Shown here one piece after another: positions 19,817-37,433 of a DNA stretch of 64,000 nt (position 1 is the first letter of the stretch; every line of letters begins with the position of its first letter). A program made the translations under genes and the position numbers. The stretch comes from Alphaproteobacteria bacterium (GTDB lineage Bacteria; Pseudomonadota; Alphaproteobacteria; MPNO01): the NCBI GenBank assembly GCA_965205995.1, contig OZ242200.1, positions 2,073,071 through 2,137,070 on the forward strand. The letters are read 5' to 3'. A model generated the notes under the pieces. The model was given only the letters and a program-made list of their open reading frames with translations, made no database searches and was not told the DNA's origin.

Positions 19817-19853
19817 GATACCCGTAACATTGCGTTCCCTTGGGAGGGACTCC

Positions 19854-20654
19854 ATGGAACAGCGGACACTACGCCGGATACTTTCGACCGTCCTCGTCGC
19901 CGCGCCGGTCGCTTTCGCCGCGCCGGTCGCCGGGGCCGCCCCGCAGGTGCTGGCGCTGTTCTCGACCGACCGGCCGGTCGCGCTCGCCTGCGCGGGCGGG
20001 ACCTGCCGCGCCGAGTTGCCGACGCTCTGCCTCCAGCCGGGACGGCGCGCGCCGCAGCCCGGCCGGTCCTACCGCCTGGCCGAAGGGCAGTCGCTCACCC
20101 TCGTCGGGCGCACTACCGGCCGGGAGACCGTGTCGATCGCGCTCGGCGGGGAGACGGCCGTCGCCGCCGCCCGCACCCATGTCGCAATGGAGGTGTCGAT
20201 CCCGCGCGCGCTCCTCGACCGCCACGGGCTGGAAGATGCGGCCATCGCCGTCGGCGATAACGTCTCCGCCATCCCGCTGGCCTCAGCGGAGGATGCGCGC
20301 CCGCAGACCGCCGGCGAGATCGCCCGGGCGGCGGGCGAAAGCCGGCGCCTGGCGACCGCGATCGTCGACCGCGATCCCGACCGGATGCCGGCGGTGCGGC
20401 TGATGACCCGGATCTCCAACGCGCCTGGTCCCGGGAACAACGACGCCGCGTGGGCGTCGATGGTTTCCGAAGCGAAGGAGGACGGGGTCTCCGCCGCCGC
20501 CATCGGCTTCGCGCGGTTCAGCTACGACCTCTGCAAGTTCAAGACCGCGAACCGCATCGTCGCCTCGTTCAGGCAATGCCTGCGCGGGCTGAGCGACGAT
20601 TCGATGGAATTCCTGAACGCCGACCTCGAACCGGCGCTCGGTTCGGGCAGCTAG
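19854..20654 (+). CDS. secreted hypothetical protein (signal peptide LSTVLVAAPVAFAAPVAGAAP), no recognisable family
   Basis: GGGAGGG SD 6 nt before ATG 19854, unbiased composition, several Cys (CAGGTC..C). Confidence 0.55.
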   Translation: MEQRTLRRILSTVLVAAPVAFAAPVAGAAPQVLALFSTDRPVALACAGGTCRAELPTLCLQPGRRAPQPGRSYRLAEGQSLTLVGRTTGRETVSIALGGETAVAAARTHVAMEVSIPRALLDRHGLEDAAIAVGDNVSAIPLASAEDARPQTAGEIARAAGESRRLATAIVDRDPDRMPAVRLMTRISNAPGPGNNDAAWASMVSEAKEDGVSAAAIGFARFSYDLCKFKTANRIVASFRQCLRGLSDDSMEFLNADLEPALGSGS

Positions 20655-21981
20655 GGCCGCCCCAGCGGCAAAGGCTGCTCGCCGAGCATCGCGCTGACGA
20701 CGACTTCGCGCACGCGCCCGGCGTCGAGCCCGTATTCTGCGATCATGTCGGCGCTGTCGGCGAGGATGGTGTCCGCGTCCTGCATGATCTTCAGCCGCTT
20801 GAACAGATCGGGGCGGGCGAGCCCCATGCTCTCTCCCACCAGCTCCATGAAATTGACCACCTCGAAGGGCCAGTCGCGCTCATGGGTGCAGAGCTCGCGG
20901 TGGCAGGCGTGGTAGATCCCGGCCAGCGCGTCGATTCCGGCCGCCTCCGCCGCCGCGAGCTGTTCGGCATGCACGTCCCGCTTGTAGTCGGGCAGCACCG
21001 AGAGGGTGTTGCACATATATCCGACGCGCGGCTGCGCGAGGTCCACGAATTCGAGCCCCGGGATCGCCCGCAAGACGGTCTCGGCGGCTTCCGCGATGCC
21101 GGCGACGCCGGGATGCTCGTGCAGCCCGACCCGCTTCTCGACCCGCCGCGTCATCAGCGGGCGCAGATCGTCGAGCCTGGATTCGAGCCAGAGCACGAAG
21201 GGGGTGAGATCGAAGGGCGAATCCCCGGCCTCCGCATGGGTCTCAAGCGCGGCTTCGCCGAGATGGACCTGGCAGCTCGGGCACCAGGACAGCACCTCGT
21301 CGACGCCGCTCTCGGCGAAGCGGTCGATGGTGCGCCCCGACAGATCGGCGAATTTTTCCAGATCGCCGGCGCGGAACTGGTAGACGCCGCAGCAATAGCT
21401 CGGCCCGCCGCGGACCACGTATCGAACCCCGAGCGCGTCCATCACGTCGAGGCAGAGGAGCGCGATATGCGGCGTCTTGAGGACGTTGCAGCCGGTATAG
21501 AAGACGGTCTCCGGGTTCTCCGGCTCGGGCGCGAGCGCATCGATCTGGCCCAGCCGCGCCAGCAGGTCGGGGGCGAGCTGGAGACGGGTGAGCGTTTGTA
21601 CGCCCTTGCTCATGGCGCCGAACTGCCGGCCGCCGCCGGTGCGCAAATCCCCGGGCGGGCTGGAGCTTTGAAGATCCGCGATGCGGGCAAGCGCCAGCAT
21701 GAAGCGCGGGTTGACGCCGTACTCGCAGGCCGGGATGCAGTGCCCGCTGCCGGTGCAGATCTCGGCCCAGCGGCGGGCCGTGTCCGGCCCCTCGCCGGTC
21801 CGGATCATCTCGATCACCCCGGCCGCCACCGATTCGGCGTCCGAAACGTCGAGCCCCGCAGGCCCCGGCATCGGGCAGACTTTCACGCATGCGCCGCATT
21901 TGGTGCAGGCATCGAGAATGCCGTCACGCCGCGCATCGAGCGCGGCGAAGAAATCCTGCGACCTGTCTGAACCGTCGGGCA
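20651..21981 (-). CDS. Fe-S oxidoreductase with 4Fe-4S dicluster and CCG domains (HdrD/GlpC-like)
   Basis: CTKCGACVKVCP and CIPACEYGVNP ferredoxin-type motifs followed by Cys-rich CCG repeats (YTGCNVL.., SYCCGV..., WCPSCQVH). Start taken at MPDGSD; the upstream part of the called ORF looks non-coding. Confidence 0.75.
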
Positions 21982-22028
21982 TGGGATCGAGATATCCAGT
22001 GTTCGACCGCCGAAGCCTAGAGGATAAC

Positions 22029-22045
22029 CGGTTCGGGCGGAACCG
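22029..22045. promoter_or_regulatory. inverted repeat CGGTTC-N5-GAACCG in the divergent promoter region between the Fe-S gene and the Rieske oxygenase operon
   Basis: Read directly. Candidate operator for a dimeric regulator. Confidence 0.3.
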
Positions 22046-22280
22046 TTCTCTCCCTCCGCCTCCCTTCGTCATATCGACCGGAGCCGCGCGGAGCGCGGCG
22101 GAGCGGAGATATTTGCCCGGCACAATGGCGCAACACCTGGGCTGGCAGATTTCTCCGCTTCGCTTCGCTCCGGTCGAAATGACGGTTGGGATCGGTGGCG
22201 ACCGGTCCCTCATCACGCCGCTGTCGACGCCGCGTCCGAAGCTGTGAAAATATAGGGTCCCCAATCGGGACGAACCTGGC

Positions 22281-23528
22281 ATGGCCGAAACCAAAACTCT
22301 CGTCGACTGGCCGGAGGAGGGCGTGGCGCGGGCGCCCTATGCGGTGTTCTCCGATCCGGCGATCTACGCGGCCGAGATGCGGCGCATCTTCCGTGGGCCG
22401 GTCTGGCACTATCTCGGCCTCGAAGCGGAGCTGCCGGAGCCCGGCTGCTACCGGCTGATCGATGTCGGCGACACGCCGGTGATCGTGCTCAGGAACCCGG
22501 ATGGCGGGATCAACGCGCTGGTCAACCGCTGCGCCCATAAGGGGACGATGCTGCTGTTCGAGCCCTTCGGCCGGGTCGAGCGGCTGATGTGCATCTATCA
22601 CAACTGGCGCTACGACCTCGACGGCTGCCTCAAGAGCGTGCCCTTCGCCAAGGGCATCAACGGCAAGGGCGGCATGCCGGGCTCGTTCAGGATGGAAGCG
22701 AACGGGCTGGACCGGCTGCGCGTCGAAAGCCTGGGCGGCATAATCTTCGGCACGTTCTCGGACGCCACGCCGCCGCTCGCCGCCTATATCGGCGACCGGC
22801 TGATGGCGAACTATCGCCGCATGACCGCCCGCCCCTTCAAGGTGCTCGGCTATTACAGCCAGTACCTCGATTCCAACTGGAAGCTCTATTTCGAGAACTC
22901 GAGCGATCCCTACCACGCGACGATCCTGCATGCCTGGGCGACGCGGTTGAAGCTCAACCGCTTCACCATGGAAGGCGCGATCGAGATGAGCGAGCAGGGC
23001 TGGCATCATCTGAGCTGGTCGAAGATGGCGACCGACCGGAACGGAGAAGTATACGAGACCGAGGCGTTCCGCAGCGGCGGCGGGGAATTCGATTCGTTCG
23101 GGCTCAACGACCCCTCGGTGATCGAGCAATGGGACGAGTTCGGCGACGGCATCACGACGGCGATCCAGACCGCCTTCCCCAATTTCGTCCTGCAGCAGAT
23201 CCACAACACCATCGCCACCCGCTATCTGGTGCCGCGCGGACCGGCGGGCTCGGAACTCGTCTGGACCGTGCTCGGCTACGCGGACGACGATGACCGGCAG
23301 ACCCGGATCCGGCTCAAGCAGGGCAATCTGATCGGGCCGGCGGGCTATATCTCGCTCGAGGACGGGATGGTCGGCGGGCTGGTGCAGAAGGGGATCGAAG
23401 GCGACAAGGACAAGTCCTCGGTGATGGAGATGGCCGGCCGGTCGGTCGAGACGATCGTCAACAGCCGCGCCTCCGAATGCGGCGTGCGCGGCTTCTGGAC
23501 CGCCTATCGCGCGCTGATGGGGGTCTGA
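22281..23528 (+). CDS. Rieske non-heme iron ring-hydroxylating oxygenase, alpha subunit
   Basis: CAHKG...CIYHNW Rieske motif, followed by catalytic domain. Confidence 0.9.
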   Translation: MAETKTLVDWPEEGVARAPYAVFSDPAIYAAEMRRIFRGPVWHYLGLEAELPEPGCYRLIDVGDTPVIVLRNPDGGINALVNRCAHKGTMLLFEPFGRVERLMCIYHNWRYDLDGCLKSVPFAKGINGKGGMPGSFRMEANGLDRLRVESLGGIIFGTFSDATPPLAAYIGDRLMANYRRMTARPFKVLGYYSQYLDSNWKLYFENSSDPYHATILHAWATRLKLNRFTMEGAIEMSEQGWHHLSWSKMATDRNGEVYETEAFRSGGGEFDSFGLNDPSVIEQWDEFGDGITTAIQTAFPNFVLQQIHNTIATRYLVPRGPAGSELVWTVLGYADDDDRQTRIRLKQGNLIGPAGYISLEDGMVGGLVQKGIEGDKDKSSVMEMAGRSVETIVNSRASECGVRGFWTAYRALMGV

Positions 23529-24016
23529 TGGCGACCCTGGTCGCGGATTCGGCGCATGTACCGGCGGCTATCGCCGCGCTGATGACCGAATATGTCCACG
23601 CGATCGACGACGACCGGCTGGAGGACTGGCCGGGTTTCTTCACCGATCCCTGCCTCTACCGGATCGCCACGCGCGACAACGAGGAACGCGGCCTGCCCGC
23701 CTCGCTCGTATTTTGCGACACCCGGGCGATGCTGCTCGACCGGGTGGTTTCGGTGCGCCATGCCAATGTGTTCGAGCCGCACCGCTACCGCCACATGGTG
23801 AGCGCGATCCGGGTCCTCGCATCCGACGGCGCGGAATACCGGGTGCAGTCGAACTATCTGGTGACCCGGACGATGCGCGACGGAACGATGGCTGTGTTCT
23901 CGACCGGCGCGTATCGGGACGTTATCGTGGTGGCCGAAGAAGGCGCTTTGTTCCGGGAACGCGTCGTCGTCTGCGACCACGGAATGATCAACAACCTGAT
24001 CGCGATCCCGATTTGA
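23528..24016 (+). CDS. ring-hydroxylating oxygenase beta subunit (SnoaL-like fold)
   Basis: 162 aa, ATG overlapping the alpha stop, with DDRLEDWPGFFTD..Y motif typical of RHO beta subunits. Confidence 0.8.
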   Translation: MATLVADSAHVPAAIAALMTEYVHAIDDDRLEDWPGFFTDPCLYRIATRDNEERGLPASLVFCDTRAMLLDRVVSVRHANVFEPHRYRHMVSAIRVLASDGAEYRVQSNYLVTRTMRDGTMAVFSTGAYRDVIVVAEEGALFRERVVVCDHGMINNLIAIPI

Positions 24017-24044: not shown

Positions 24045-25379
24045 ATGCGCAAGCATTTGATCTGCGGGACGCTGTTCGACGGTCTCGACGAGACCGCGAA
24101 AACCGACCAGACGATCGTCATCGACGACGACCGGATCGCCTATGCGGGGCCGTCCGCCGGGGCGCCGGACCAGAAGCCGGGCGAGCCGGTGATCGACCAC
24201 AGCGCCGAGTTTGCGATGCCGGGGCTGATCGACATCCACGTCCATCTGAGCTACGGCGACGCCCAGGCGAACGAGGACATCGACATCTATTCGCCGCCCG
24301 AATACCGGGCGCTGCGCGCGCTGCGGGCGGCGCAGACGGTGCTGAAGGCGGGCTACACCTCGATCGCCGACCCGGCCTCGACCGGGCGCACCACGGTGGG
24401 CGTCCGCGACGCGATCAACTCGGGCATGTTCGAGGGGCCGCGCATCACCACCTCGGGACGCCAGATCACCGCGCGCCAGGGGCTCGCCGACTGGTATCCG
24501 ACCTGGGTCGGCGTCCCGGAAAGCTCGGTCGGGGTGCTGGTGCGCAATACCGACGAGGCGATCGAAGAGATCCGCATGCAGGTCAAGGACCGGGTCGATT
24601 TCGTCAAGATCGCGCTCGACGGGCTGCACCGGAAGGATTCGGACGGCGAGCTGATGGCCTGCTTCAACCAGCGCGAGATGGACGCGATGGTCGAGGAGAG
24701 CCACCGCCTCGGGCGCAAGGTGATCGTCCATGCGCGCGGGCGGGAGGCGGTGCTGACCTCGGCCCGGGCCGGGGTCGACGTGATCTTCCACGCCTTCGAG
24801 ATGGACGACGAAGGGCTGGATGCGGTGCTGGAGAGCGGCGCGATCCTGTCGCCCGCGCTCACCTTCGTCGCCAACACGGTCGAGTTCACCCGGCCGTCCG
24901 ACCCCTGCTTCAAGTGGCGGCCGACCCAGAACCGGCGCGTCATCGACGATGCCTGCGAGATGCTGATCAAGGCGCGCGAGCGGGGCGTGCCCTTCATGGT
25001 GGGGACCGATTCGGGCTTCGCGATCACGCCCTACGGGGAGTGGCACGCCAAGGAGCTGGAGCTCATGGTCGACGAACTCGGCTTCACCCCGGGCGAGGCC
25101 CTCAAGGCGACGACCAGCGGCAATTCGGCGCTGCTGCGCGAGAGGGACGAGGTCGGCCGCCTGGGCCAGGGCGCCTATGCCGATATCACGGTGGTGGCGG
25201 GCGATCCGCTCAAGGACATCGCGGTGCTGCAGAACCGCGAGGCCATCCGGGCGGTCTATCGCGGCGGCGAGCCGGTCGACCTCACGCCGGAGCCGCGCGC
25301 GGCCGGCTATCAGTGGGAATACTCGTATCGGCAGTGGAACGACATCTACACGCGGGAGCGTGTCGCCGATCTCAACTGA
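24045..25379 (+). CDS. metal-dependent amidohydrolase (imidazolonepropionase/prolidase-like subgroup)
   Basis: GLIDIHVHLSYGD metal-binding motif, 444 aa. Confidence 0.85.
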   Translation: MRKHLICGTLFDGLDETAKTDQTIVIDDDRIAYAGPSAGAPDQKPGEPVIDHSAEFAMPGLIDIHVHLSYGDAQANEDIDIYSPPEYRALRALRAAQTVLKAGYTSIADPASTGRTTVGVRDAINSGMFEGPRITTSGRQITARQGLADWYPTWVGVPESSVGVLVRNTDEAIEEIRMQVKDRVDFVKIALDGLHRKDSDGELMACFNQREMDAMVEESHRLGRKVIVHARGREAVLTSARAGVDVIFHAFEMDDEGLDAVLESGAILSPALTFVANTVEFTRPSDPCFKWRPTQNRRVIDDACEMLIKARERGVPFMVGTDSGFAITPYGEWHAKELELMVDELGFTPGEALKATTSGNSALLRERDEVGRLGQGAYADITVVAGDPLKDIAVLQNREAIRAVYRGGEPVDLTPEPRAAGYQWEYSYRQWNDIYTRERVADLN

Positions 25380-27715
25380 TTCGCGGGCGTAACATCGAAC
25401 CGTTCAGGACAATCGGCCGGCCGGTCCGGCGCAAGGAAGATTCGCGCCTGCTCACCGGAAGGGGCCGCTTCAGCGACGACTTCGCCCTGCCCGGCCAGAC
25501 CCACGCGGCGATGGTTCGTTCGCCCCATCCCCACGCCCGGATCCTCTCGGTGGACAAGACGGCGGCCCTGGCCCTGCCCGGCGTTCTCGCCGTCTTCACG
25601 GGCGCCGACTGCGCGGCCGACGGGCTCCGCCCGCTCGACCACAGCCCGCTGCCGAAAACCCGGTTCGACCTCAAGCTGCACGGCCCCGGCGGCGGCGAGG
25701 TCTTCGTCGGCGACCATGCGCTGCTGCCGCTCGACAGGGTGCGCCATGTCGGCGAAGCCGTCGCCATGGCGGTCGCCGAGACCAGGGGCGCCGCGCAGGA
25801 TGCGGCTGAGGCGGTAGTCGTCGACTACGAGGAGCTGCCGGCGGTCACCGAGACCGCGGCCGCCGCCCGCCCAGGCGCACCGCTGATCTGGGACGACCGG
25901 CCGGACAATATCCTGGTCGAAACCTTCTTCGGCGACGAGGCCGGCACCGACGCCGCCTTCGCCGCGGCGACGCATGTCGTCGGCCGCCGTTTCGTCATCC
26001 CGCGGGTGACCGGCTGCCCGCTGGAGCCGCGCTCGGCGCTGGCCCAATACGATCCGGAGACCGGGCGCTACACCATCCATGCCGGCAGCGGCAGCGCGGT
26101 CCGCCAGAAGCGCGAGATCGCCGCCGTGCTGGGGGTGGAACCGGACCGGGTGCGCATCCACGCCTACGATGTCGGCGGCAATTTCGGCACCCGCAACCGC
26201 TGCTATGTCGAGTTCCCGCTGGCCGCCTGGTCATCGCGCAGGCTGGGGCGGCCGGTCAAGTGCACGGTCGAGCGCGGCGAAGCTTTGGTCAGCGACTACC
26301 AGGGCCGCGACCTGGTCACCGAGGTGACGCTGGCGTTCGACGCGGACGGCGCGATCCTCGGCCTGCGGGCGGAGAATCTGAGCAATGCCGGCGCGCGCTG
26401 CGTCTCGCTGTCGCCGCTGTCGAAGGGCTCGGGGATCGTCACCGGCTCCTACCGCGTGCCGGTCGCCTGGCTGCGGTCGCGCGCGACGTTTTCCAACACC
26501 CCGCCGACCAACGCCTATCGCAGCTCGGGCCGCCCGGAGTGCATCTTCGCCATCGAGCGGCTGATCGAGACCGCCGCGGAAGAGCTCGGGATCGACGCGG
26601 TCGAGCTGCGGCGCAGGAACCTGGTCGCACCGGAAGAGATGCCCTATTGCAACGCGGTCGGCGTGACCTATGACAGCGGCGAGTACGAAAAGAGCCTGGA
26701 CATGGCGCTCGGCCTCTCCGACCCGGACGGTTTCGGCGCGCGGAGGGAGGAGGCCGAGGCCCGCGGGCGGCTGCTGGGCCGGGGCGTCGCCCATTATGTC
26801 GAATCCTCGGTCGGCACGCCGGTGGAGCAGGCGCGCATGCGCGTCTTCGGCCAGGACCGCCGGGTCGATGTGGTGATCGGCACCCAGCCGAGCGGCCAGG
26901 GCCACGAGACCAGCTTCGCCCAGGTCGCCGCCGAACGCCTCGGCCTTCCGGTCGAGGATATCCGGATCGTCATGGGCGATACCGACATCGTGAAAATCGG
27001 CGGCGGGTCGCATTCGGGCCGCTCGATGCGGATGGCGGGAACCGTGATCGTCATGGCCGTCGATGCGTTGATCGAAGACGCGAAGCCAATTGCCGCCGGG
27101 CTCCTGGAAGCGGCGGAAATCGACATCGACTTCGCCGACGGCCGGTTCTCGGTCGCCGGCACCGACCGCGAAGCGACGCTCTACGAGGTCGCCGGGGCGG
27201 CCGAGGGAGGCGAGCTCCGCATCGTCGCCGATAACGAGATGCACACCCCGGTCTTTCCCAACGGATGCCATGTCTGCGAGCTGGAGCTCGATCCCGACAC
27301 CGGCACGATCGACATCGTCCGCTACGCGGCCGTGGACGATGTCGGCCGGGCGATCAACCCGCTGATCGTCGACGGGCAGACGCATGGCGGCATTGTCCAG
27401 GGGGTCGGCCAGGCCATGTGGGAGGTCTGCGTCAACGACCCCGAAAGCCAGCAGCCGCTCGCCGGCTCGTTCATGGACTACGCCCTGCCGCGCGCCGACC
27501 GGCTCCCGTTCTTCGCGACCGCGCTCAACGAAGTCCCCTCGCCCACCAACCCGCTCGGAATCAAGGCCGGCGGCGAGGGCGGCACCACCCCCGCGCTCGC
27601 GGTGATCGTCAACGCGATCCTCGACGCGCTCAAGCCGTTCGGCGTCGCCGACCTCACCATGCCGGCGACGCCGTTCCGGGTGTGGAGCGCGATCCGCGCC
27701 GCGCGGGGCGGTTAA
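25379..27715 (+). CDS. xanthine dehydrogenase / CoxL-family molybdopterin-binding subunit (molybdenum hydroxylase large subunit); start codon uncertain
   Basis: Conserved N-terminus GRPVRRKEDSRLLTGRGRF begins immediately at the upstream TGA, where only CTG/ATT are available as starts. AYRSSGRPE and GGGFG-type motifs. No CoxM/CoxS-type partner genes adjacent. Confidence 0.85.
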   Translation: MRGRNIEPFRTIGRPVRRKEDSRLLTGRGRFSDDFALPGQTHAAMVRSPHPHARILSVDKTAALALPGVLAVFTGADCAADGLRPLDHSPLPKTRFDLKLHGPGGGEVFVGDHALLPLDRVRHVGEAVAMAVAETRGAAQDAAEAVVVDYEELPAVTETAAAARPGAPLIWDDRPDNILVETFFGDEAGTDAAFAAATHVVGRRFVIPRVTGCPLEPRSALAQYDPETGRYTIHAGSGSAVRQKREIAAVLGVEPDRVRIHAYDVGGNFGTRNRCYVEFPLAAWSSRRLGRPVKCTVERGEALVSDYQGRDLVTEVTLAFDADGAILGLRAENLSNAGARCVSLSPLSKGSGIVTGSYRVPVAWLRSRATFSNTPPTNAYRSSGRPECIFAIERLIETAAEELGIDAVELRRRNLVAPEEMPYCNAVGVTYDSGEYEKSLDMALGLSDPDGFGARREEAEARGRLLGRGVAHYVESSVGTPVEQARMRVFGQDRRVDVVIGTQPSGQGHETSFAQVAAERLGLPVEDIRIVMGDTDIVKIGGGSHSGRSMRMAGTVIVMAVDALIEDAKPIAAGLLEAAEIDIDFADGRFSVAGTDREATLYEVAGAAEGGELRIVADNEMHTPVFPNGCHVCELELDPDTGTIDIVRYAAVDDVGRAINPLIVDGQTHGGIVQGVGQAMWEVCVNDPESQQPLAGSFMDYALPRADRLPFFATALNEVPSPTNPLGIKAGGEGGTTPALAVIVNAILDALKPFGVADLTMPATPFRVWSAIRAARGG

Positions 27716-27783
27716 ATGGGTTGGAATCGGGCGGCCGCGCGTGTAACGGTCCAACCCATCGTCGAAGCCAGGGGGACAAAACC

Positions 27784-29979
27784 GTGCTGTTCCGATCCCG
27801 GTCGGCCGATCGACCGTTCCATTTCGGCCTCTTTCCGCTGGAGACGCTGCCGCGCGACGAGTCGCTGATCGACGCGGAGGCGGAGCGCCCTCCGGCCGGC
27901 GCCCCGGTGCGCGAGCGGAGCGAGGGCCAGTTCGTCGATGCGCTCGACAAGTTCACCCGGCTCTACGCCGAGTTCGCCGACGCCGATGCGGCGAAGGAGA
28001 AGGCGCCGGTCTCGGACGACCTCGAACGTCGCTCGGTCGACATCAAGGGGGTCGGCTATTTCATGGACGCGAGCCAGGTCGGCATCTGCCGGATCCCGGA
28101 CAATGCCTGGCTCGCCGGCGCCGAGCGCTGCGACCACGATCATGCGATCGTCATCCTCGTCGAGCATTCGCGCGTCGCCGAGGAAGGCAATCTCGCCCGC
28201 GACTGGATGCTTCCGGCGGTCGCCGCCAACGCGGAAATGCGCGCGGCCGAGATCGCCGCCCTGATCGCCGGCCACATCCGGGTCATGGGCCATGGCGCAT
28301 ACATGCACGGCATGGACAAGGAACGCCTCGATGCCGGGCGCCTCGCGGTGCTCGCCGGGCTCGCTATCCGCCAGGGGGAGCGTATCGTCAACCCGTTCGT
28401 CGGCGAGGCGTTTTCGCTCTGCGTGGTCTCGACCGACTACCCACTCGCCGTCGACAAGCCGCTGGCGGCGGGGGCGGTCGGCGCGTCCCGGGGATTCGGC
28501 TACTGGCTCGGGCGCAACGGCGCCCGCTCCGGGCGCGAGCGCAACCGGCGCGCCAGGCGGCGCACCGATCTCGGCCCGTTCGCGATGGAGACCGTCAAGC
28601 GCGTCGACCGGCCGACCACGCTGATCCTCGACGAAGAGGTGCCGCGCGTGCCCAAGCGCGCCGCCTTCTTCGAACGCGCGTTGCAGGGCGATCTCGGGGT
28701 CAAGGCGCAGATGGCGCGGCGGATCTTCTCCTTCAAGCACCCGCTCTCGCTCAGCCAGCTCAAGGTCATCCGCAAGATGGTGCCTTACCAGGACGGTCCG
28801 GTCGCCGAAATCGACAGCGGGCGCTTCGGCGACGCCGAGGCCAATACCAGGGCGCTCAAATCGCTCGCCTATTTCCTCGGCACCGACATCGCCGGCGTGT
28901 GCGAGGTGCCGCGCTATGCCTGGTATTCGCACAAGGAGAACGGCGAGCCGATCGAGCCCTATCACAAATACGCCGTGGTGATGCTGATCGACCAGGGCTT
29001 CGACACGATGGAAGGGGCGAGCGGCGACGACTGGATTTCCGGCGCCCAGTCGATGCGCGCCTATCTCCGGGGGGCGGAGATCGCCTCGGTGATGGCCGAG
29101 CTTCTGCGCGTCAACGGGTTTCCGTCGCGGTCGCAGACCAACGCCGACAGCGACGTGCTGCACATCCCGCTGGTCCTCTGGGCCGGGCTGGGCGAGCTGT
29201 CGCGGATCGGCGAGCTCATCCTCAACCCGTTTCTCGGGCCCCGGCTCAAGACCGTGGTCATGACCACCGACATGCCGCTGGTGCCGGACAAGCCGATCGA
29301 TTTCGGCCTCCAGTATTTCTGCAGCAATTGTTTCAAATGCGCCCGCGAATGCCCCTGCGACGCGATCCCTCTGGGCGACAAGGTGATGTTCAACGGCTAC
29401 GAGATCTGGAAGCCGGATGTCGAACGCTGCACCCGCTACAGGCTCACCAACGTCAAGGGCTCGGCCTGCGGGCGCTGCATGAAGACCTGCCCGCTCAACA
29501 AGGTGGTGGACGCGGACGGCCCGCTGATGACCCGGATGGCGAGCTGGCTCGGCATCAACGCGATGTTCCTCAAACCGCTGATGGTGCCGGTCGCGGCATG
29601 GCTCGACGACGCGCTCGGCAACGGCACGCGCAACCCGCTCAAGAAATGGTGGTTCGACCACGAGGTGGTCGACGGCGTAACCACCGTGCCGAAGGCCACC
29701 AACCAACGGGACATCGACCCGTCGCGCAGTATCGACCCGGCGAAACAGAAGATGGCCTATTACCACGCCAACATGATGCCGCCGCCGGACTCGTCGGAAC
29801 CCTTCGCGGTCGACCGCAAGCAGGCCCTGGCGGCGAAGGACGCGATCGAGACCCCGGCCGAGGCGCGGGCGCGGCTCGCCAACGGCGCCCACACGCCCGG
29901 GCACTACATCCCGACCCCGCCCGCCGGCGCCGCCGATGCGGAGAAGGAGCTGGTCGCGAGCCCCTATGCGAAGGATTAG
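27784..29979 (+). CDS. reductive dehalogenase-like protein (cobalamin-dependent, soluble 'catabolic' RdhA class) with two [4Fe-4S] motifs and a long C-terminal extension
   Basis: CSNCFKCARECP (CxxCxxCxxxCP) followed by C-x12-CGRCMKTCP, the truncated second-cluster arrangement typical of RdhA/QueG. About 730 aa, no TAT signal, no adjacent RdhB anchor. GTG start with AGGGGGA SD. Confidence 0.6.
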   Translation: MLFRSRSADRPFHFGLFPLETLPRDESLIDAEAERPPAGAPVRERSEGQFVDALDKFTRLYAEFADADAAKEKAPVSDDLERRSVDIKGVGYFMDASQVGICRIPDNAWLAGAERCDHDHAIVILVEHSRVAEEGNLARDWMLPAVAANAEMRAAEIAALIAGHIRVMGHGAYMHGMDKERLDAGRLAVLAGLAIRQGERIVNPFVGEAFSLCVVSTDYPLAVDKPLAAGAVGASRGFGYWLGRNGARSGRERNRRARRRTDLGPFAMETVKRVDRPTTLILDEEVPRVPKRAAFFERALQGDLGVKAQMARRIFSFKHPLSLSQLKVIRKMVPYQDGPVAEIDSGRFGDAEANTRALKSLAYFLGTDIAGVCEVPRYAWYSHKENGEPIEPYHKYAVVMLIDQGFDTMEGASGDDWISGAQSMRAYLRGAEIASVMAELLRVNGFPSRSQTNADSDVLHIPLVLWAGLGELSRIGELILNPFLGPRLKTVVMTTDMPLVPDKPIDFGLQYFCSNCFKCARECPCDAIPLGDKVMFNGYEIWKPDVERCTRYRLTNVKGSACGRCMKTCPLNKVVDADGPLMTRMASWLGINAMFLKPLMVPVAAWLDDALGNGTRNPLKKWWFDHEVVDGVTTVPKATNQRDIDPSRSIDPAKQKMAYYHANMMPPPDSSEPFAVDRKQALAAKDAIETPAEARARLANGAHTPGHYIPTPPAGAADAEKELVASPYAKD

Positions 29980-30172: not shown

Positions 30173-31006
30173 ATGCCTCTCGTCGACTGCGACGGCCGCA
30201 GGGTGAGCTACGAGGCCGGCGGACCGGCGGACGGCGCCGCGCCGCTTCTTGTGCTCCAGCCGCCCGGCGCCAGCGGCGCGGCGATCTGGCGGCCCATCGC
30301 GGCGGCGTTGCAGGACCGGTTCCGCATTGCCGCGGTCAACCCCTCGGCCTATGGCGATACCGAGGCCTTTGCCGGCCCGGCGCCGATGACGATCCGGGAC
30401 GAGGCGGCGGCGACCGCCGCCGCGATCCGCGCCGAGTTGCCGGAAGGCGGCAGGGCGCGCGCCCATATCGTCGGCCATTCCTATGGCGGCACGATCGCGC
30501 TGGTGCTGGCCCTCGATTGGCCGGGGTTGGTGGACCGGCTGACCCTGCTCGAGCCCGCGCCCTACAAGCTGCTGCGCGAGGCCGGCGAGACCGCTTTTGC
30601 CGAGGAGATCGGCGCGCGCAACCGGGATTTCATCGAGACCGTGCGCGCCGGCGGGCTCAACGACGCGGCGATGGAAGACTATCTCGATTATTTCAATGAC
30701 CGACCGGGATACTGGCGGAGCCTGGACGAGGAGACGCGGACCCGGATGCTGGCCTTGGCGGAGCGCCTGGCCGTCGGGCTCGACGCGGTGCGGCGGCTGA
30801 AAATGCGCCGCGCCGACCTCGCCGCGATCTCGGTCCCGGTCACCGTGATCCGGGGCGGCGCGACCGATCCGCTGCACGCGAGGCTGTCCGAACTGGTCGC
30901 CGGGGCGATCCCGGGCGCCGCGCTCACCGACCTGCCGGGCGCCGGCCACATGATGACCCTGACCCACGGCCCGGCGATCGCCGAGATGCTGCGAAGAATA
31001 GCGTAG
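30173..31006 (+). CDS. alpha/beta-fold hydrolase
   Basis: GHSYGG nucleophile elbow, 277 aa. Confidence 0.8.
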   Translation: MPLVDCDGRRVSYEAGGPADGAAPLLVLQPPGASGAAIWRPIAAALQDRFRIAAVNPSAYGDTEAFAGPAPMTIRDEAAATAAAIRAELPEGGRARAHIVGHSYGGTIALVLALDWPGLVDRLTLLEPAPYKLLREAGETAFAEEIGARNRDFIETVRAGGLNDAAMEDYLDYFNDRPGYWRSLDEETRTRMLALAERLAVGLDAVRRLKMRRADLAAISVPVTVIRGGATDPLHARLSELVAGAIPGAALTDLPGAGHMMTLTHGPAIAEMLRRIA

Positions 31007-31014: not shown

Positions 31015-32247
31015 TCACCCGCCGGAGGAACCCCGCCGCGGCGCCATGAAGGGGAGCGCGCAGAAAAAGCTCAGCAATGCCATCGAACCCATCGTCAGGA
31101 AGGCGAACCCCCAGGCGTTCGAGCCGCCCAGCGGCGCGGCCAGATCGAGGACCAGCCCCACCAGCGCCGGCGCGAACAGGGATCCGCTGAACCCGAATAT
31201 CGAGTGCACCGCGAGCGTCGCGCCGCGATGGCCCACCGGAGACGTCGCGACCGCGCCGGCGGTCAGCGCCGCCGAATCTGCCTGGATCGCGGCGGAATAG
31301 AGCAGACACAGGAAAGCCGCGATGGCGAAGGGGAGCGTGGAGGAAAACCCGGTTGCGACGCCTATCCCGAAGGTCCCCAGCATGACCCAGGCGATCAGGC
31401 GCGCACGCCCGACGCGCATTGCGATTTCCGCGCCGGCGATGCTGGAAACCACCGAGACGAGGGCGAACAGGGTGGCAAAGAGCGTGGCGTCGAGCTCGAA
31501 CGAGGCGCCGCTGCCGAGGCAGAACACCAGGAACGGGACGATCCAGGAGCGCATGGCGAACAGCTCGGCCCCGTGGCCGGCATAGGCGACGATGTAGCCC
31601 ATCGTCTCGCGCGAGCGCAGAACCGGACGGAAGTCCAGCATATGGCTGCGTTCTTCGGCGGCCGCTTCGGGCGACCGCGGCACGATTGCCGCCGCCAGGA
31701 GAAGAGCGGACAGCGCCGGCCCCGCGGCCGTGAACAGAAACGCGCCGCGCCATCCAAACCACTCCAGGGCAACGCCCGCGAGCGAATAGGAGAGCGCGGT
31801 GCCGACGCTGAAGCTCGCGGTATAAAATGCGACCGCCCGCGCGTGTCGGGCCTGCGGCAGCCGGTCGGTGAGCATCTTGAGGCCCGGCATGTAGCTGCCC
31901 GCGAGACCGGCGCCGGCGATCACGCGCCACGGCAAGGCGGACCAGAACCCGTTCGCGAAGAGCGCCAACCCCGCCAGGCCGAAGGCGGAGAGCATCGCAC
32001 CCAGAATGACGATATGGCGGGCATCGACCCGGTCGGTCATCGCGGAAAGAAACGGGACCGCGAGGACATAGCCGCCGAAAAACGCACCGGACAGCCAGCC
32101 GGCCATGGCGTTGCTCATATGCCAGGCGGGCTGCAGCACCGGCAGCAGCGACCAATACGCCGCGAAACCGGCCATCGTCAGCACTTCGGCCAGGCACACC
32201 ACGGCGATCAGGGTCGACGGGCGTCGCAAGGCGGTGGGGGCGGTCAC
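31015..32247 (-). CDS. MFS transporter
   Basis: 12 predicted hydrophobic segments. GTG start at 32247 chosen to avoid overlap with the upstream thioesterase gene. Confidence 0.75.
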   Translation of the reverse strand: MTAPTALRRPSTLIAVVCLAEVLTMAGFAAYWSLLPVLQPAWHMSNAMAGWLSGAFFGGYVLAVPFLSAMTDRVDARHIVILGAMLSAFGLAGLALFANGFWSALPWRVIAGAGLAGSYMPGLKMLTDRLPQARHARAVAFYTASFSVGTALSYSLAGVALEWFGWRGAFLFTAAGPALSALLLAAAIVPRSPEAAAEERSHMLDFRPVLRSRETMGYIVAYAGHGAELFAMRSWIVPFLVFCLGSGASFELDATLFATLFALVSVVSSIAGAEIAMRVGRARLIAWVMLGTFGIGVATGFSSTLPFAIAAFLCLLYSAAIQADSAALTAGAVATSPVGHRGATLAVHSIFGFSGSLFAPALVGLVLDLAAPLGGSNAWGFAFLTMGSMALLSFFCALPFMAPRRGSSGG

Positions 32248-32264
32248 CGCATCGAAGGGGCGCC

Positions 32265-32696
32265 TCAACCCCTCGCCCGCCAGACCCGCGCGGTGCCGCT
32301 GGCCGTGGCGAGCACCGCACCCTCGGGATCCAGCAATCGGCCTTCCATGAAGCAGATCGTCTTGCCGGCGCGCACCGGCCAGCCTTCGCCGATCAGCCGG
32401 CCGGGCCTGGCGGGGGCAAGAAAGGTGGTCTTCATTTCGAGCGTCGGCACGCGGTAGTCGGGGCCGATCCTGGCGAGCGCGGCGAACGACATCGCCATGT
32501 CGAGCATGGCCGACACCATGCCGCCCTGGAGCACGCCGAGCATGTTGCAGAACTCGTCTCTCCCCTCGAAATCGATCTTGAACACGCCGCTGGCGGCATC
32601 GCAGGCGATGACTTGCGCGCCGAGGAGAGCCGTGACCGGCGTCTCCTCGAACAGGCGCTGCACCCAAAGCGGGTATTCTTCCGGCAAGGCGTCCAT
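32265..32696 (-). CDS. PaaI/hotdog-fold thioesterase
   Basis: 143 aa whose pattern (GVLQGGMVSAMLDMAMSFAA) is typical of thioesterase-superfamily proteins. Confidence 0.7.
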   Translation of the reverse strand: MDALPEEYPLWVQRLFEETPVTALLGAQVIACDAASGVFKIDFEGRDEFCNMLGVLQGGMVSAMLDMAMSFAALARIGPDYRVPTLEMKTTFLAPARPGRLIGEGWPVRAGKTICFMEGRLLDPEGAVLATASGTARVWRARG

Positions 32697-32758
32697 CTCC
32701 CTAAACTAGACATTCGACGAGGCGCGCAAAACCGGGGCGCGGAACCAAGGGGGCTGGC

Positions 32759-34189
32759 ATGGGCGACGAACTCTGGCGCTGGACGGCGGAGGCGCTGGTC
32801 CGCGGAATCCGGACGCGCGCGATCTCGAGCCGCGAGGCGACCGAGAGCTGCCTCGCCAGGCTCGATGCGGTCAACCCGCGCATCAACGCCGTGGTCGACC
32901 CGCTGGCCGACGAGGCGCTGGCCGCCGCCGACCGGGCGGACGAGGCGATCCGCCGCGGCGAGGCGCCGGGCGTGCTCCACGGGGTGCCGGTGACGGTCAA
33001 GATCAATGTCGACTATGCCGGCCGCGCGACCACCAACGGGGTGACCGCCTTCGCCAACATGGCCGCCGAAGAGGACAGCGTCTCGGTCGCCAATCTGCGC
33101 AAGGCGGGGGCGGTGATCCTCGGGCGGACCAACGTACCCGGCTTCTCCACCCGATACTTCACCGACAACGATTTGCACGGTCGGACGCTCAACCCGTGGG
33201 ATGCGGGACGCACGCCGGGAGGATCGAGCGGCGGGGCGGCGGCCGCGGTCGCCACCGGCATCGGCCCGATCGGCCACGGCAACGACCGCGCCGGATCGGT
33301 CCGCTACCCGGCTTTTGCCTGCGGCGTCGCGGGTCTCCGCCCCAGCCTCGGAAGGGTGCCCGACTTCAACCCGTCGGCCACCGAGGAGCGCGGCATCTCC
33401 TCGCAGATGGCGAATGTCCAGGGCCCGCTCGCCCGCACCGTCGGGGATATCCGCCTCGGCCTGGAGGCGCTGGCCGCGCCCGACCCCCGCGATCCGTGGT
33501 TGGTCCCGGTGCCGCTCGCCGCCCACCCCCCGGCGGCGCGCGGCCGCGCCGCCATCCTGTCGTCTTCGCCGGGGGTGAACGCCGATCCGGCGGTGACCGA
33601 GGCGGTGCGCCAGTCGGGCGCCTGGCTCGAGGACGCCGGCTACGACGTCGAGGAGGCGGCGCCGCCCCGGCTCGACGAGGCCTCGGGGCTGTTCTGGCCG
33701 ATCCTGATGGCCGAGGAGCGCGCGGCGACCCCCGCCGAACGCTCCGCCTCGTCGAGCGGGATCGAACGCTTCGGCGACGCGGCGGTGAAACGCGCCCGCG
33801 CGTCGGTCCGCGCCTATGCGGGCGACCTCGACTACGACACCTATGTCCGTTCGCTCGCCTCCCGAACGACCATGCTGCGCGAATGGTACGCCTTCTTCGA
33901 ACGCTACCCGATCCTCGTCATGCCGGTTTCGTGGCAGCGCCCCTACCCCATCGACCACGACCAGAAAGGCGATGACGCGGTGCGGGAAATGCTCGACGCG
34001 CACCGGCCGATGCTGGCGATCTCGCTGCTCGGCCTGCCGGGGCTCTCGGTGCCGGTGAGCCTCGCCGGCGGGGTTCCGGTCGGGGTGCAGATCGTCTCCG
34101 CCAGGTTCGGCGAGGAACGCCTGCTGGCAGCCGGCGAGACGATCGAGGCGCGCTCCCCCATCGATACGCCGATCGACCCCAGAGGCTGA
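32759..34189 (+). CDS. amidase-signature (Ser-cisSer-Lys) family amidase
   Basis: GGSSGGAAAAVA and GHGNDRAGSVRYPAFACGVAGLRPS signature. Confidence 0.9.
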   Translation: MGDELWRWTAEALVRGIRTRAISSREATESCLARLDAVNPRINAVVDPLADEALAAADRADEAIRRGEAPGVLHGVPVTVKINVDYAGRATTNGVTAFANMAAEEDSVSVANLRKAGAVILGRTNVPGFSTRYFTDNDLHGRTLNPWDAGRTPGGSSGGAAAAVATGIGPIGHGNDRAGSVRYPAFACGVAGLRPSLGRVPDFNPSATEERGISSQMANVQGPLARTVGDIRLGLEALAAPDPRDPWLVPVPLAAHPPAARGRAAILSSSPGVNADPAVTEAVRQSGAWLEDAGYDVEEAAPPRLDEASGLFWPILMAEERAATPAERSASSSGIERFGDAAVKRARASVRAYAGDLDYDTYVRSLASRTTMLREWYAFFERYPILVMPVSWQRPYPIDHDQKGDDAVREMLDAHRPMLAISLLGLPGLSVPVSLAGGVPVGVQIVSARFGEERLLAAGETIEARSPIDTPIDPRG

Positions 34190-34199: not shown

Positions 34200-34397
34200 A
34201 TGGCCGACCAGGATGCGATGTTCGAGGCGCTGATCGACGCGTCGGGCGTGCCGGTCTCGGAAGACGAGAAGGCGGATCTGCGGGCGACCTACACCACGCT
34301 GATGACGCTCGCCGCGCGCACCCGCCGGAAGGGGCGCAGCTGGGAGGTCCGGACGCTGCCCCATTACACGCCGCCGGTCCCGGCCGATGACCGCTGA
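34200..34397 (+). CDS. small protein (65 aa) between two amidase genes; possible GatC/AtzG-like amidase partner
   Basis: ATG 11 nt after the upstream stop and 3' overlap with the next amidase. Acidic helical N-half (SEDEKADLRATY) loosely reminiscent of GatC. Confidence 0.45.
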   Translation: MADQDAMFEALIDASGVPVSEDEKADLRATYTTLMTLAARTRRKGRSWEVRTLPHYTPPVPADDR

Positions 34398-35784: not shown

Positions 35785-35803
35785 GGCCGCCGGGCGGCCC
35801 GGC

Positions 35804-36208
35804 TCAGGCGAAAACCAGGCTGATTTCGGGGATCAGGATCAGCAGCACGGTGACCGCCAGCATGACCACGGCGAATGGCGCCGCGCCGAGAAAAATCTGG
35901 TTCAGCGTGATCCGCTCGTCGTCCAGCGTGGATTTGACGACATAGCAGGTTATGCCGAGCGGCGGCGTCAACAAGCCAATCTCGACCGCGATGACCGTCA
36001 CGATTCCGAACCAGACCGGATCGCCGCCGAACTGGAACAGCACCGGCAAAGCGAGCGGCAGGACGATGAGCATGATGGATATGGAATCGAGAATCATGCC
36101 AAGCAGAATCAGGAGAACCAGGTAGAGCGCGATAAACCCCGCGAAACCCAATCCGGTGGAGCCGATGAACTCCCCCGTCTGCTGCGGCAGCCCCGACAAT
36201 GCCAGCAT
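35804..36208 (-). pseudogene. C-terminal remnant (about 150 aa) of a TRAP DctM large permease
   Basis: Matches only the last third of the intact DctM copies at 12570..13877 and 40794..42107 (..DPVWFGIVTVIAVEIGLLTPPLG..). The frame upstream switches into DctP sequence at about 36270..36300. Confidence 0.75.
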
Positions 36209-36269
36209 TCGGGCATAGACATTGGCGGCGAGGATCAGGAACAGGATCGAGACCGTGATATGGCCGGTC

Positions 36270-37240: not shown

Positions 37241-37433
37241 CCCTTTCCGTTGGGTAATGGTCTCAACTTGTGTTGTGGGGTGGGGCGCAGATATTCGCCT
37301 CGGCGCATCGTAGCGACCGCGCAACGGCCGGCCAATGCGATTCTGAACGGCGTAGACGCCGGGGCGGCGAACGGGGCTTCGACATTCCGCCTTGTCTCGC
37401 AGAAGATACCCTTGGGATTTCAGGGAGGCAGGG

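Follow-up and report, generated by a model that had tools for sequence, protein, structure and literature searches.

An XDH-family molybdenum subunit gene co-inherited with an NpRdhA-type reductive dehalogenase gene within one clade

NpRdhA of Nitratireductor pacificus pht-3B (4RAS, 6ZXU, 6ZY0, 6ZY1) is a reductive dehalogenase with a duplicate domain and two [4Fe-4S] motifs; it carries no TAT signal or fused reductase and has no RdhB. Its gene was reported beside those of a ferredoxin reductase and two ferredoxins, and truncated catabolic RdhAs depend on separate redox partners (PMC10463259). The RdhA-PDOR fusions BhbA (Comamonas sp. 7D-2) and JtRdhA (Jhaorihella thermophila) are self-sufficient, catabolic and oxygen-tolerant, and act on ortho-halogenated phenolics (PMC10463259). 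Among molybdenum hydroxylases, the relevant systems are CoxLMS (8UEM, 1N5W), the 6-hydroxypseudooxynicotine dehydrogenase KdhLMS (7DQX) and quinoline 2-oxidoreductase (1T3Q). All are heterotrimers, in which a three-domain L subunit is combined with an M (FAD) and an S (2x 2Fe-2S) subunit.

The only described electron-transfer assembly known to us that joins a molybdopterin protein and an RdhA is the organohalide-respiration complex of Dehalococcoides mccartyi, the OmeA protein of which we take to belong to the DMSO-reductase/complex iron-sulfur molybdoenzyme family and not to the XDH family. The complex contains RdhA/RdhB, the molybdoenzyme OmeA/OmeB and the Hup hydrogenase (PMC6005880). It is membrane-bound, respiratory and strictly anaerobic, with a TAT-exported RdhA and RdhB, and none of these features is found in the locus described here.

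We analysed a 64-kb stretch of DNA (the window) from a high-GC alphaproteobacterium, of which the nearest named relative is a Defluviicoccus MAG. Three consecutive genes on the + strand encode a metal-dependent amidohydrolase (24045–25379), a CoxL/XDH-family molybdopterin-binding large subunit (Mo subunit, ~25376–27715) and an RdhA (27784–29979). The order, strand and coordinates of these genes, and the 68-bp spacer between the Mo gene and rdhA, are as claimed in an earlier note on this DNA, and its family assignments of all three are borne out by Pfam, PDB and TIGR02486 matches. What is new here is that the Mo gene and rdhA are a co-inherited pair within one clade.

RdhA and the lone Mo subunit

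Judged by its sequence, the window RdhA is an ordinary representative of the NpRdhA type, i.e. of the well-known, oxygen-tolerant, 'truncated', cytoplasmic, catabolic reductive dehalogenases with cobalamin and two [4Fe-4S] clusters, and not an exotic one. It resembles NpRdhA end to end (phmmer against 4RAS, E=1.2e-194, 47% identity, query 7–704 versus chain 6–699), the differences amounting to 53% of residues and to a hydrophobic stretch, 8 residues longer in the window protein, that follows the second of the Fe-S motifs. Of the two profile checks suggested for the dehalogenase in the earlier note, TIGR02486 gives 183.7 bits, above its cut-off of 160.35, whereas PF13486 gives no match at E<=0.01. 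The protein does carry two [4Fe-4S] motifs of its own, as had been claimed (CSNCFKCARECP and CGRCMKTCP, with Fer4_7 matches too). All nine aligned cysteines of NpRdhA (residues C512–C568) are kept, and the window RdhA and all Mo-linked homologs share the six substrate-binding/catalytic residues F291, S422, M423, Y426, K488 and R552. A vestigial second copy of the cobalamin-binding core, at the N-terminus, shows up as secondary tblastn matches of residues 4–230 to the core region in homologs. BhbA and JtRdhA share the core, the duplicated domain and the key residues; unlike them, the window RdhA (731 aa) stops after the RdhA module and lacks the flavin, NAD and 2Fe-2S domains of a fused PDOR reductase. 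As in NpRdhA, there is no TAT signal (the N-terminus, VLFRSRSADRPFHFG, lacks a twin-arginine motif) and no rdhB-like ORF, the gene downstream of rdhA encoding an alpha/beta hydrolase. A respiratory RdhAB type was rejected on the latter two grounds and because PceA aligns over the C-terminal core only (E=4e-25, residues 461–623). The dN/dS of rdhA is 0.16–0.29. The NpRdhA family occurs in hundreds of genomes, and ~160 other rdhA loci have no adjacent ortholog of the window Mo gene; RdhA neighbourhoods are highly variable, with the commonest neighbour family found in 11 of 80 loci.

The Mo subunit has the Ald_Xan_dh_C + MoCoBD_1 + MoCoBD_2 architecture (PF01315, E=2.8e-26; PF02738, E=1.3e-64; PF20256, E=6.1e-68), the same three domains as in the L subunits of the heterotrimeric enzymes. 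Its matches to solved structures include CoxL 8UEM (E=2.5e-141), 7DQX and 1T3Q, and it shares with the three heterotrimers the motifs QGQGHE, SGRS and GQTHGG and the catalytic Glu. In the alignment to 8UEM, KAGGEGG stands opposite KGIGESA, and QPSGQGHETSFAQ, SHSGRS and VDGQTHGG are found; the pterin-binding motifs and the catalytic Glu, as we identify them from the CODH and XDH structures, are thus retained. Assignment as a Form I aerobic CO dehydrogenase was rejected, since NAYRSSGRPE aligns with VAYACSFR of 8UEM and the Cu-ligand loop AYxCSFR is thereby replaced by AYRSSGR. The TIGR02416 score is 464 bits versus a cut-off of 991, and none of the NCBIfam equivalog profiles reaches its cut-off. 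The gene is under purifying selection (dN/dS 0.17–0.26), like its neighbours, and from these sequence features we infer a hydroxylase in working order.

The Mo gene had been said to begin at the stop codon of the amidohydrolase gene. This stands in so far as CTG 25376 overlaps the TGA (as CTGA), but no ATG, GTG or TTG lies there; the only candidates at this point are the CTG and ATT 25379, and the nearest canonical in-frame start, GTG 25334, would entail a 46-nt overlap with the amidohydrolase gene. In the related locus L002, the conserved N-terminus likewise lacks ATG, GTG and TTG, and a stop codon interrupts the frame ahead of the CTG, so that the non-canonical CTG 25376 is probably the real start. 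At the equivalent position, L004 has a GTG with a GGAG RBS, and in the relatives of 72–75% the Mo gene starts with ATG or GTG. The N-terminal IGRPVRRKED motif, encoded ahead of the first ATG, is conserved as protein sequence; in close relatives, gene callers gave N-terminally truncated models of 734–754 aa. Since the Mo gene has no canonical start codon in the lineage of the window, its expression level is uncertain.

Distribution of the pair and of the partner subunits

Adjacency of the Mo gene and rdhA was seen in the window and in nine distinct related loci, and is thus inherited rather than a one-off. The tree of the Mo subunits matches that of the RdhAs, and both clades are monophyletic. 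In four of the loci, from relatives of 72–75% (L081, L087, L088 and L090), the two genes are translationally coupled (TGATG, TGAgATG, TAGccATG and TAGgcATG), with stop and start overlapping or about 1–3 nt apart. L087 keeps the bare pair, with 1 nt between the genes, in surroundings that otherwise differ and are flanked by mobile elements. The tight coupling in the four loci and the bare pair of L087 would also be compatible with a physical complex. Strict co-occurrence fails in several places: L171, from an in-clade genome, has the Rieske, amidohydrolase and Mo genes with no rdhA within 8 kb, L092 has the sister RdhA without a Mo gene, and an opposite-strand dctPQM (TRAP transporter) operon stands between the Mo gene and rdhA in L002 and L003. 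An obligate two-component enzyme of Mo subunit and RdhA was rejected on these grounds. No clade-specific feature was found in either protein, the active-site residues being the same as in Mo-less homologs.

The spacer (27716–27783) between the Mo stop codon (27713–27715) and the GTG start of rdhA (27784) contains a promoter-like motif, TTGGAAT at 27721–27727 and CGTGTAACGGT at 27740–27750, followed by the RBS AGGGGGA at 27770–27776. The motif columns are invariant in six relatives, including L002 and L003, where the TRAP operon and not the Mo gene lies upstream of rdhA. Neither a terminator nor a significant fold was found in these 68 bp.

Unlike the heterotrimeric LMS enzymes, the window Mo subunit is not accompanied by M or S genes, and the earlier observation that no FAD or 2Fe-2S subunit is encoded nearby holds for the whole 64 kb. 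Pfam scans of ~60 ORFs gave no PF00941, PF03450, PF01799 or PF00111, a six-frame motif scan was negative, and tblastn with CoxS/CoxM queries gave no match below E=0.5 in the window, although these queries recovered genuine CoxS and CoxM at other loci. In the subfamily to which the Mo subunit belongs, L genes as a rule stand alone, mostly without any RdhA, and L083, L089, L171 and L172 have no M/S genes within 8 kb. Canonical coxM/coxS genes elsewhere, which the earlier note would have counted against its proposal if co-regulated with the Mo gene, were found in relatives only, in two pair-bearing genomes: a coxL-coxM-coxS operon lies ~600 kb from the pair on the same contig in L081 and 3.4 kb from it in L087. 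The M/S operons of the relatives accompany their own L (800–810), in a 2-furoyl-CoA-dehydrogenase-like operon. Dispersed subunit genes do occur: L047 has an orphan coxS-coxM pair, and L085 has an extra L gene adjoining an M-S-L operon. The window also encodes three Rieske terminal oxygenases, for which no ferredoxin or reductase gene is present in the 64 kb. The same distinguishes the window rdhA from the NpRdhA gene: it has no ferredoxin or ferredoxin reductase gene in the 64 kb, and an XDH-family Mo gene lies upstream. Redox partners encoded in trans are thus the local rule in the window and its relatives.

Proposed pathway and alternative readings

Upstream of the pair lie genes for the alpha (22281–23528, + strand; PF00355, PF00848) and beta (23477–24016, + strand; PF00866) subunits of a Rieske ring-hydroxylating oxygenase of the terephthalate/anthranilate dioxygenase type. 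The best solved relatives of the alpha subunit are 7VJU and TphA2 7Q04 (E ~1e-120); its score against NF041684 AndAc, 402 bits, is below the cut-off of 750, as is that of the beta subunit against NF041685 AndAd (171 bits) below its own. Divergently from the alpha gene is oriented a gene for an Fe-S/CCG-domain protein with a 4Fe-4S dicluster and a cysteine-rich CCG domain (20651–22294, − strand; PF02754, PF13183, PF12838), with 83–89% counterparts in L002, L004 and L091 and none in more distant pair-bearing loci. The amidohydrolase (444 aa; PF01979; dN/dS 0.12–0.23) belongs to a carboxypeptidase/ochratoxinase-like subgroup. It matches 2QS8, 8IHQ, 3MTW and 4C5Y (E 1e-42 to 1e-30), and the solved structures nearest to it are those of exo-amide hydrolases, namely, Xaa-Pro dipeptidase, Arg carboxypeptidase Cc2672 and ochratoxinase-like enzymes. 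Downstream of rdhA are genes for a PcaD-like alpha/beta-fold hydrolase (30173–31006, + strand; PF12697, PF00561), similarly placed in L001, L002, L003 and L091; an MFS transporter (31015–32250, − strand, upper boundary approximate; PF07690), with 87–92% matches in L002, L003 and L091; a 4HBT-family acyl-CoA thioesterase (32265–32705, − strand; PF03061), whose gene adjoins rdhA in L004 and L090 too; and two amidase-signature amidases (32759–34189, + strand; PF01425, NF005687 626 bits, over the cut-off; and 34387–35784, + strand; PF01425).

We favour, with a probability of roughly 0.58, the reading that the window genes encode separate conventional enzymes of one aromatic amide/acid catabolic cluster, with partners in trans, and not a Mo-cobalamin machine. 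The cluster would comprise the TphA/AndA-like Rieske dioxygenase, the amidohydrolase, the Mo hydroxylase, the RdhA, the alpha/beta hydrolase, the 4HBT thioesterase, the MFS transporter and the two amidases. Because its NpRdhA active site is complete, the RdhA most likely takes Br, I or Cl ortho to a hydroxyl off a phenolic or hydroxy-aromatic acid, and a soluble ferredoxin/reductase system encoded elsewhere would supply it with electrons via the two [4Fe-4S] clusters. The Mo subunit may borrow S (2Fe-2S) and M (FAD) subunits encoded elsewhere in the genome, and its hydroxylation could, for example, create or process the hydroxy-halo-aromatic required by the RdhA. The two genes were probably co-inherited in one clade because both act in the same pathway. 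A single route for a halogenated aromatic, as the earlier note had envisaged with hydroxylation, dehalogenation and ring hydrolysis, is plausible; the ring-hydrolysis step is doubtful because the nearest solved relatives of the amidohydrolase are exo-amide hydrolases.

It is also possible, if rather unlikely, that the two genes are neighbours by descent only, rdhA having been inserted once beside the Mo gene in an ancestor, with no shared substrate or interaction, and the Mo subunit working with the Rieske oxygenase and amidohydrolase or in an unrelated pathway. The single origin of the pair and the mirrored, monophyletic trees would be expected under such a history, as would the retention of the Rieske, amidohydrolase and Mo genes without rdhA in L171, the sister RdhA of L092 without a Mo gene and the variable RdhA neighbourhoods. 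In addition, only ~5 lineages have an XDH-family gene at up to 10 kb from some other rdhA locus, which is about the gene-density expectation (estimated, not computed). Descent alone fits less well with L087, where just the pair persists in a differing context, with the stop/start overlap or 1–2 nt gaps of the four coupled loci, and with the similar purifying selection on the Mo gene and rdhA. A docking of the lone Mo subunit on the RdhA, with the two electrons from hydroxylation passing from Mo-pterin via the distal [4Fe-4S] cluster to cobalamin and driving dehalogenation without S/M subunits or ferredoxin, appears improbable. To our knowledge, the characterised XDH-family enzymes all pass electrons via 2Fe-2S, and we know of none in which a [4Fe-4S] partner replaces the S subunit. 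The direction of electron flow would fit, since Mo enzymes give off electrons and RdhAs take them up, and the translational coupling, the persistence of the pair as a unit in L087 and the lack of S/M or ferredoxin genes in 64 kb point the same way. Moreover, reconstitution of NpRdhA with the ferredoxins of its gene cluster failed, and the physiological electron donor for this truncated catabolic type is not settled (PMC10463259). Against docking stand the generality of lone L genes, mostly without RdhA, the Mo gene without rdhA in L171, the TRAP operon that splits the pair, the promoter-like motif that rdhA has to itself in the clade of the window, the M/S genes elsewhere in two pair-bearing genomes and the absence of clade-specific features in either protein. 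The earlier proposal that a cobalamin/Fe-S RdhA services the Mo subunit, replacing the FAD and 2Fe-2S subunits, finds no support on much the same evidence, the RdhA being an ordinary one. The two proteins are probably not paired as an electron-transfer complex, and direct transfer from Mo subunit to RdhA is unsupported. It is very improbable that the truncated catabolic RdhA of this clade is physiologically reduced by the orphan Mo subunit, the two electrons from hydroxylation at one aromatic position going directly to [4Fe-4S]/cobalamin; if true, the two would form a partner-free, redox-neutral pair that hydroxylates and dehalogenates, and an XDH-family enzyme would be working without 2Fe-2S and FAD subunits.

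The chance that the Mo gene is instead a decaying relic (pseudogene) beside a functional rdhA is slighter still. Such decay could account for the conserved N-terminus having no ATG, GTG or TTG in the window and L002, for the truncated models called in close relatives and for the missing partner subunits. It sits poorly with the GTG and RBS of L004, the canonical starts of the 72–75% relatives, the conservation of IGRPVRRKED, the neighbour-like dN/dS and the full set of cofactor and catalytic motifs; the Mo ORF is intact in all relatives.

Identity and integrity of the Mo subunit and RdhA

The window has a G+C content of ~69%. From 22.2 to 35.8 kb, its + strand carries a series of catabolic genes. 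The series opens with the alpha (22281-23528) and beta (23477-24016) subunits of a Rieske oxygenase, followed by an Amidohydro_1 protein (amidohydrolase, 24045-25379), a CoxL/XDH-family molybdopterin-binding subunit (Mo subunit, ending at 27715), an RdhA-like protein of 731 aa (27784-29979), an alpha/beta hydrolase (30173-31006) and two amidases (32759-34189 and 34387-35784). The interval between the alpha/beta hydrolase and the amidases is taken up by minus-strand genes for an MFS transporter and for a 4HBT thioesterase. The earlier note had described the three central genes as adjacent, with a lone Mo subunit, and this observation is confirmed: its coordinates, gene spacing, RdhA length and Fe-S motifs are correct, as are the families to which it assigned the amidohydrolase, the Mo subunit and RdhA. 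The rdhA gene starts with GTG 27784, which has a good RBS in front of it and is separated by 68 bp from the TAA of the Mo gene.

Pfam profiles, proposed as a check on the Mo subunit, detect all three canonical domains. The closest solved structures are CoxL (8UEM), KdhL (7DQX), CutL and QorL, with which the catalytic glutamate and pterin motifs align. Since AYRSSGR takes the place of the CODH-specific loop AYxCSFR and scores for all NCBIfam equivalogs fall far below the cut-offs, the protein is predicted to be a hydroxylase, not a CO dehydrogenase. No Fe-S motif is present within the Mo subunit itself. The possibility that the gene is a relic was rejected: its dN/dS against five relatives is 0.17–0.26, no different from that of the amidohydrolase and RdhA, which argues for a working gene.

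The Mo gene had been reported to begin at the amidohydrolase stop codon. A coupled start at this place is likely, but the Mo frame offers no ATG, GTG or TTG there; these codons are absent at the conserved N-terminus in both the window and L002, one of its close relatives. Candidate starts in the window (25334-25381) are CTG 25376, where CTGA overlaps the TGA, ATT 25379 and GTG 25334, the last with a 46-nt overlap. In L002 (4540-4585), the frame is closed by a stop between the counterpart of this GTG and the conserved N-terminus, so that only CTG or ATC remain. Among the other close relatives, L004 (7574-7600) has a GTG with a GGAG RBS at the corresponding position, and L003 (4127-4460) has a 320-bp spacer before the Mo gene. 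Public gene calls for the Mo protein of close relatives are N-terminally truncated (734–754 aa). Because such models would remove the N-terminal motif IGRPVRRKED...LLTGRGRF, which is conserved family-wide, translation most likely proceeds from a non-canonical (non-AUG) start coupled to amidohydrolase termination, i.e., by termination-reinitiation.

The alignment of RdhA to NpRdhA, the structurally solved catabolic dehalogenase from Nitratireductor pacificus (4RAS; E=1.2e-194, 47% identity), runs from end to end. Of the two profiles suggested for the dehalogenase, TIGR02486 is matched over its cut-off and PF13486 gives no match. Enzymes of this class are cytoplasmic and oxygen-tolerant and retain a second, vestigial copy of the cobalamin-binding domain; those characterised so far all act specifically on ortho-halogenated phenols (PMC10463259). 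A 'truncated' clade of the class lacks the fused reductase domain, and which physiological donor supplies these NpRdhA-type enzymes with electrons is still unresolved (PMC10463259). The residues listed for the class, namely, F291, S422, M423, Y426, K488 and R552 (PMC10463259), are all kept in the window RdhA, predicting a complete active site, and so are the nine aligned NpRdhA cysteines (residues 512–568). There is no TAT motif, rdhB or reductase domain. On this evidence, the protein is a straightforward new member of the NpRdhA family, which is very common, with more than 570 confirmed matches (a lower bound) in each of two collections.

Evolution of the Mo-rdhA gene pair

The pair is shared by the close relatives of the window, the loci L001–L004 and L091, with RdhA identity of 85–90%. 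Among the 80 RdhA-homolog loci listed, the Mo gene is found in four close relatives (85–89% identity). The pairing could have been confined to near-identical genomes, but this explanation was rejected: an rdhA of 75% identity comes after every one of the Mo orthologs of only 72–75% identity (L081/L082, L087, L088 and L090). The Mo-rdhA junctions in these more distant loci are TGATG, TGAgATG, TAGccATG and TAGgcATG, which indicates that the two genes are translationally coupled there. In L087 the pair alone is kept, and its surroundings differ, with AbiE and integrase genes next to it. In neighbor-joining trees, the linked RdhAs form one clade and so do the linked Mo subunits, the two topologies mirroring each other, meaning that the pair had one origin and was then co-inherited. 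In L081 (5139-7881) and L088 (5157-7885), the amidohydrolase and the Mo gene are set apart by three inserted genes, for Amidohydro_2, PpoB2/DUF2182 and DUF1326 proteins; both loci lack the Rieske alpha gene and keep the beta gene.

The association is not strict. L171, which falls inside the Mo clade, keeps the Rieske-amidohydrolase-Mo arrangement and has dnaA downstream instead of rdhA, and L092 encodes a sister RdhA without a Mo gene. A Mo ortholog is likewise missing next to rdhA in about 160 other loci, whose neighborhoods are highly variable. Moreover, a dctP-dctQ-dctM TRAP operon on the opposite strand separates Mo from rdhA in L002 (6930-9940) and L003 (6895-9855), in both cases on the minus strand. 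The two operons are complete and 89% identical to each other, and are found neither in the window nor in L001, L004 or L091.

Directly upstream of rdhA lies a motif composed of TTGG(C/A)AT, 12 bases (13 in L001) and CGTGTAAC(C/G)GT, at 27721-27750 in the window. It is invariant in six relatives of the window clade, among them L001, L002, L003, L004 and L091, and is kept even where the place of the Mo gene is taken by the divergent TRAP operon. Its invariance whatever stands further upstream suggests that rdhA has its own promoter or operator. A scan of the 68-bp spacer flagged neither a terminator nor a consensus sigma-70 promoter, and did not flag the motif either. A structured spacer was considered and rejected, since its 10-bp inverted repeat shows no more folding tendency than shuffled sequence (z=-0.16).

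Clustering of ORFs within 5 kb of rdhA yielded no universal partner family: none occurs in more than 11 of the 80 loci. The commonest families (at most 11 loci) are Amidohydro_2, ABC ATPase, SDR, acyl-CoA dehydrogenase and Rieske ferredoxin. Co-localization of RdhA with XDH-family proteins does recur independently, as in L073 (10001-14770), a Gemmatimonadota MAG in which co-directional genes for a 2Fe-2S subunit and an IorB-like Mo subunit come after an NpRdhA-family gene, in this case with an Fe-S subunit of its own. At about five lineages among ~160 loci, such co-localization is, by our rough and uncomputed estimate, not clearly above what gene density would lead one to expect.

Redox partners of the lone Mo subunit

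The absence of FAD (M) and 2Fe-2S (S) subunits, noted earlier for the immediate neighborhood, extends over the whole 64 kb: neither Pfam scans of essentially all plausible ORFs, nor tblastn with CoxS and CoxM queries, nor motif scans detected such genes, and the same tblastn queries recovered real CoxS and CoxM in other loci. The earlier note had raised an arrangement in which the Mo subunit could be serviced by the adjacent cobalamin/Fe-S protein. This is not supported. The lone large subunit (L) is not unusual in this Mo subfamily; orthologs of 65–73% identity in L083, L089, L171 and L172 likewise have no M or S genes within 8 kb or the contig. Lone CoxL-like genes being routine there, their occurrence is in itself no ground for claiming novelty. 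An obligate Mo-RdhA partnership is also counted against by L171, L092, the ~160 unpaired loci, the TRAP insertions and the motif that rdhA has of its own. Servicing by RdhA is very improbable, with a chance that we put well below one in ten.

The best-supported picture is that of conventional catabolic enzymes with redox partners encoded elsewhere. The window contains three Rieske-type terminal oxygenases (22281-24016; 46371-48279, minus strand; 58369-59676), two of them alpha/beta pairs and one VanA-like, with no ferredoxin or reductase component for them across the 64 kb, so that supply of electron-transfer partners in trans is evidently the norm in this part of the genome. Canonical coxM/coxS genes elsewhere, which the earlier note regarded as contrary to its proposal if co-regulated with the Mo subunit, are present in the genomes of two pair-bearing relatives, where they could serve the lone L. 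In L087, a divergent L(801)-M-S operon lies 3.4 kb from the pair, and in the L081 genome the orthologous operon shares a 2.6-Mb contig with the pair, at a distance of ~600 kb. In addition, the Mo ortholog of L085 stands directly upstream of a complete M-S-L operon. A shared M-S-L operon as the partner of the lone L was dropped as an explanation, as the operons of L085 and L087 are not orthologous (34–50% identity). The converse case is seen in L047 (13205-14476), where an orphan coxS-coxM pair without L lies 1 kb from rdhA, beside methylmalonyl-CoA mutase.

The nearest precedent found for cooperation between a Mo protein and an RdhA is a respiratory complex of Dehalococcoides that contains OmeA (PMC6005880). 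Our literature search returned nothing relevant on Mo-rdhA pairing, RdhA/XDH association or orphan coxL genes. The Dehalococcoides complex and the pair in the window differ in both enzyme family and lifestyle. A physical pairing would settle what donates electrons to RdhA in one clade, but the evidence at hand speaks against it. Mo and rdhA are a clade-specific, co-inherited and probably pathway-linked gene pair.

Proposed pathway and neighboring genes

The Rieske alpha subunit is closest to the terephthalate dioxygenase TphA2 and AndAc-type enzymes, which act on aromatic carboxylates. Ring hydrolysis had been put forward as one possible step, but the nearest relatives of the amidohydrolase, namely, Xaa-Pro dipeptidase, Arg carboxypeptidase Cc2672 and ochratoxin-type amide hydrolases, attack amide bonds outside rings and do not open the rings themselves. 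Together with the two amidases, the 4HBT thioesterase, CoA ligases and TRAP/MFS transporters, these enzymes fit aromatic amide/acid catabolism, and the abundance of amidases and amidohydrolases, in the company of a TphA-like dioxygenase, suggests that the natural substrates are halogenated aromatic amides or acids. In such a pathway, a chemically sensible sequence would have the Mo hydroxylase introduce or process a hydroxyl beside the halogen and RdhA remove the halogen ortho to that hydroxyl, the redox partners of both presumably being encoded elsewhere. Even if the pairing is only metabolic, it thus has a substrate logic: hydroxylation next to the halogen would yield the ortho-halophenol motif that RdhAs of this class require. 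Oxygen-tolerant catabolic RdhAs are sought for bioremediation. The locus adds to them a 47%-identical NpRdhA-family member with a putatively complete active site, and a clade that couples the translation of rdhA to that of an orphan molybdenum-hydroxylase gene. It is a useful family member with a testable substrate/donor hypothesis, and no new kind of system.

Several other features of the window deserve mention. At the left edge, an ORF entering the window (2-454) has a weak, sub-threshold match to PF00384 (molybdopterin oxidoreductase) up to a stop codon at 452-454, which could be a Sec codon or mark a truncated gene. An IS110-family transposase (PF02371; 5053-6087, minus strand) adjoins rpoD, a sign of local rearrangement. 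Upstream of the Rieske gene and divergent from it, a conserved ORF without a Pfam match (19830-20654), 71–77% identical in L004 and L091, adjoins an Fe-S/CCG protein (20651-22294). The genes selA and selB, for selenocysteine synthase and the Sec-specific elongation factor, occupy 53665-57083; a minus-strand ORF chain beside selA (55322-58540) with apparent in-frame stops was rejected as antisense noise over selB. Between the second amidase and an SDR gene, ~1.6 kb (35790-37420) missing in L002–L004 contains only TRAP transporter fragments, the C-terminal third of DctM (35819-36268) and a DctP fragment (36456-36752), and is a decayed transporter operon; L091 has ~1.65 kb extra at the equivalent site. 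Finally, a PduO-type ATP:cob(I)alamin adenosyltransferase (38230-38835, minus strand; PF01923, 4e-57) is encoded 8 kb downstream of RdhA, between two SDR genes.
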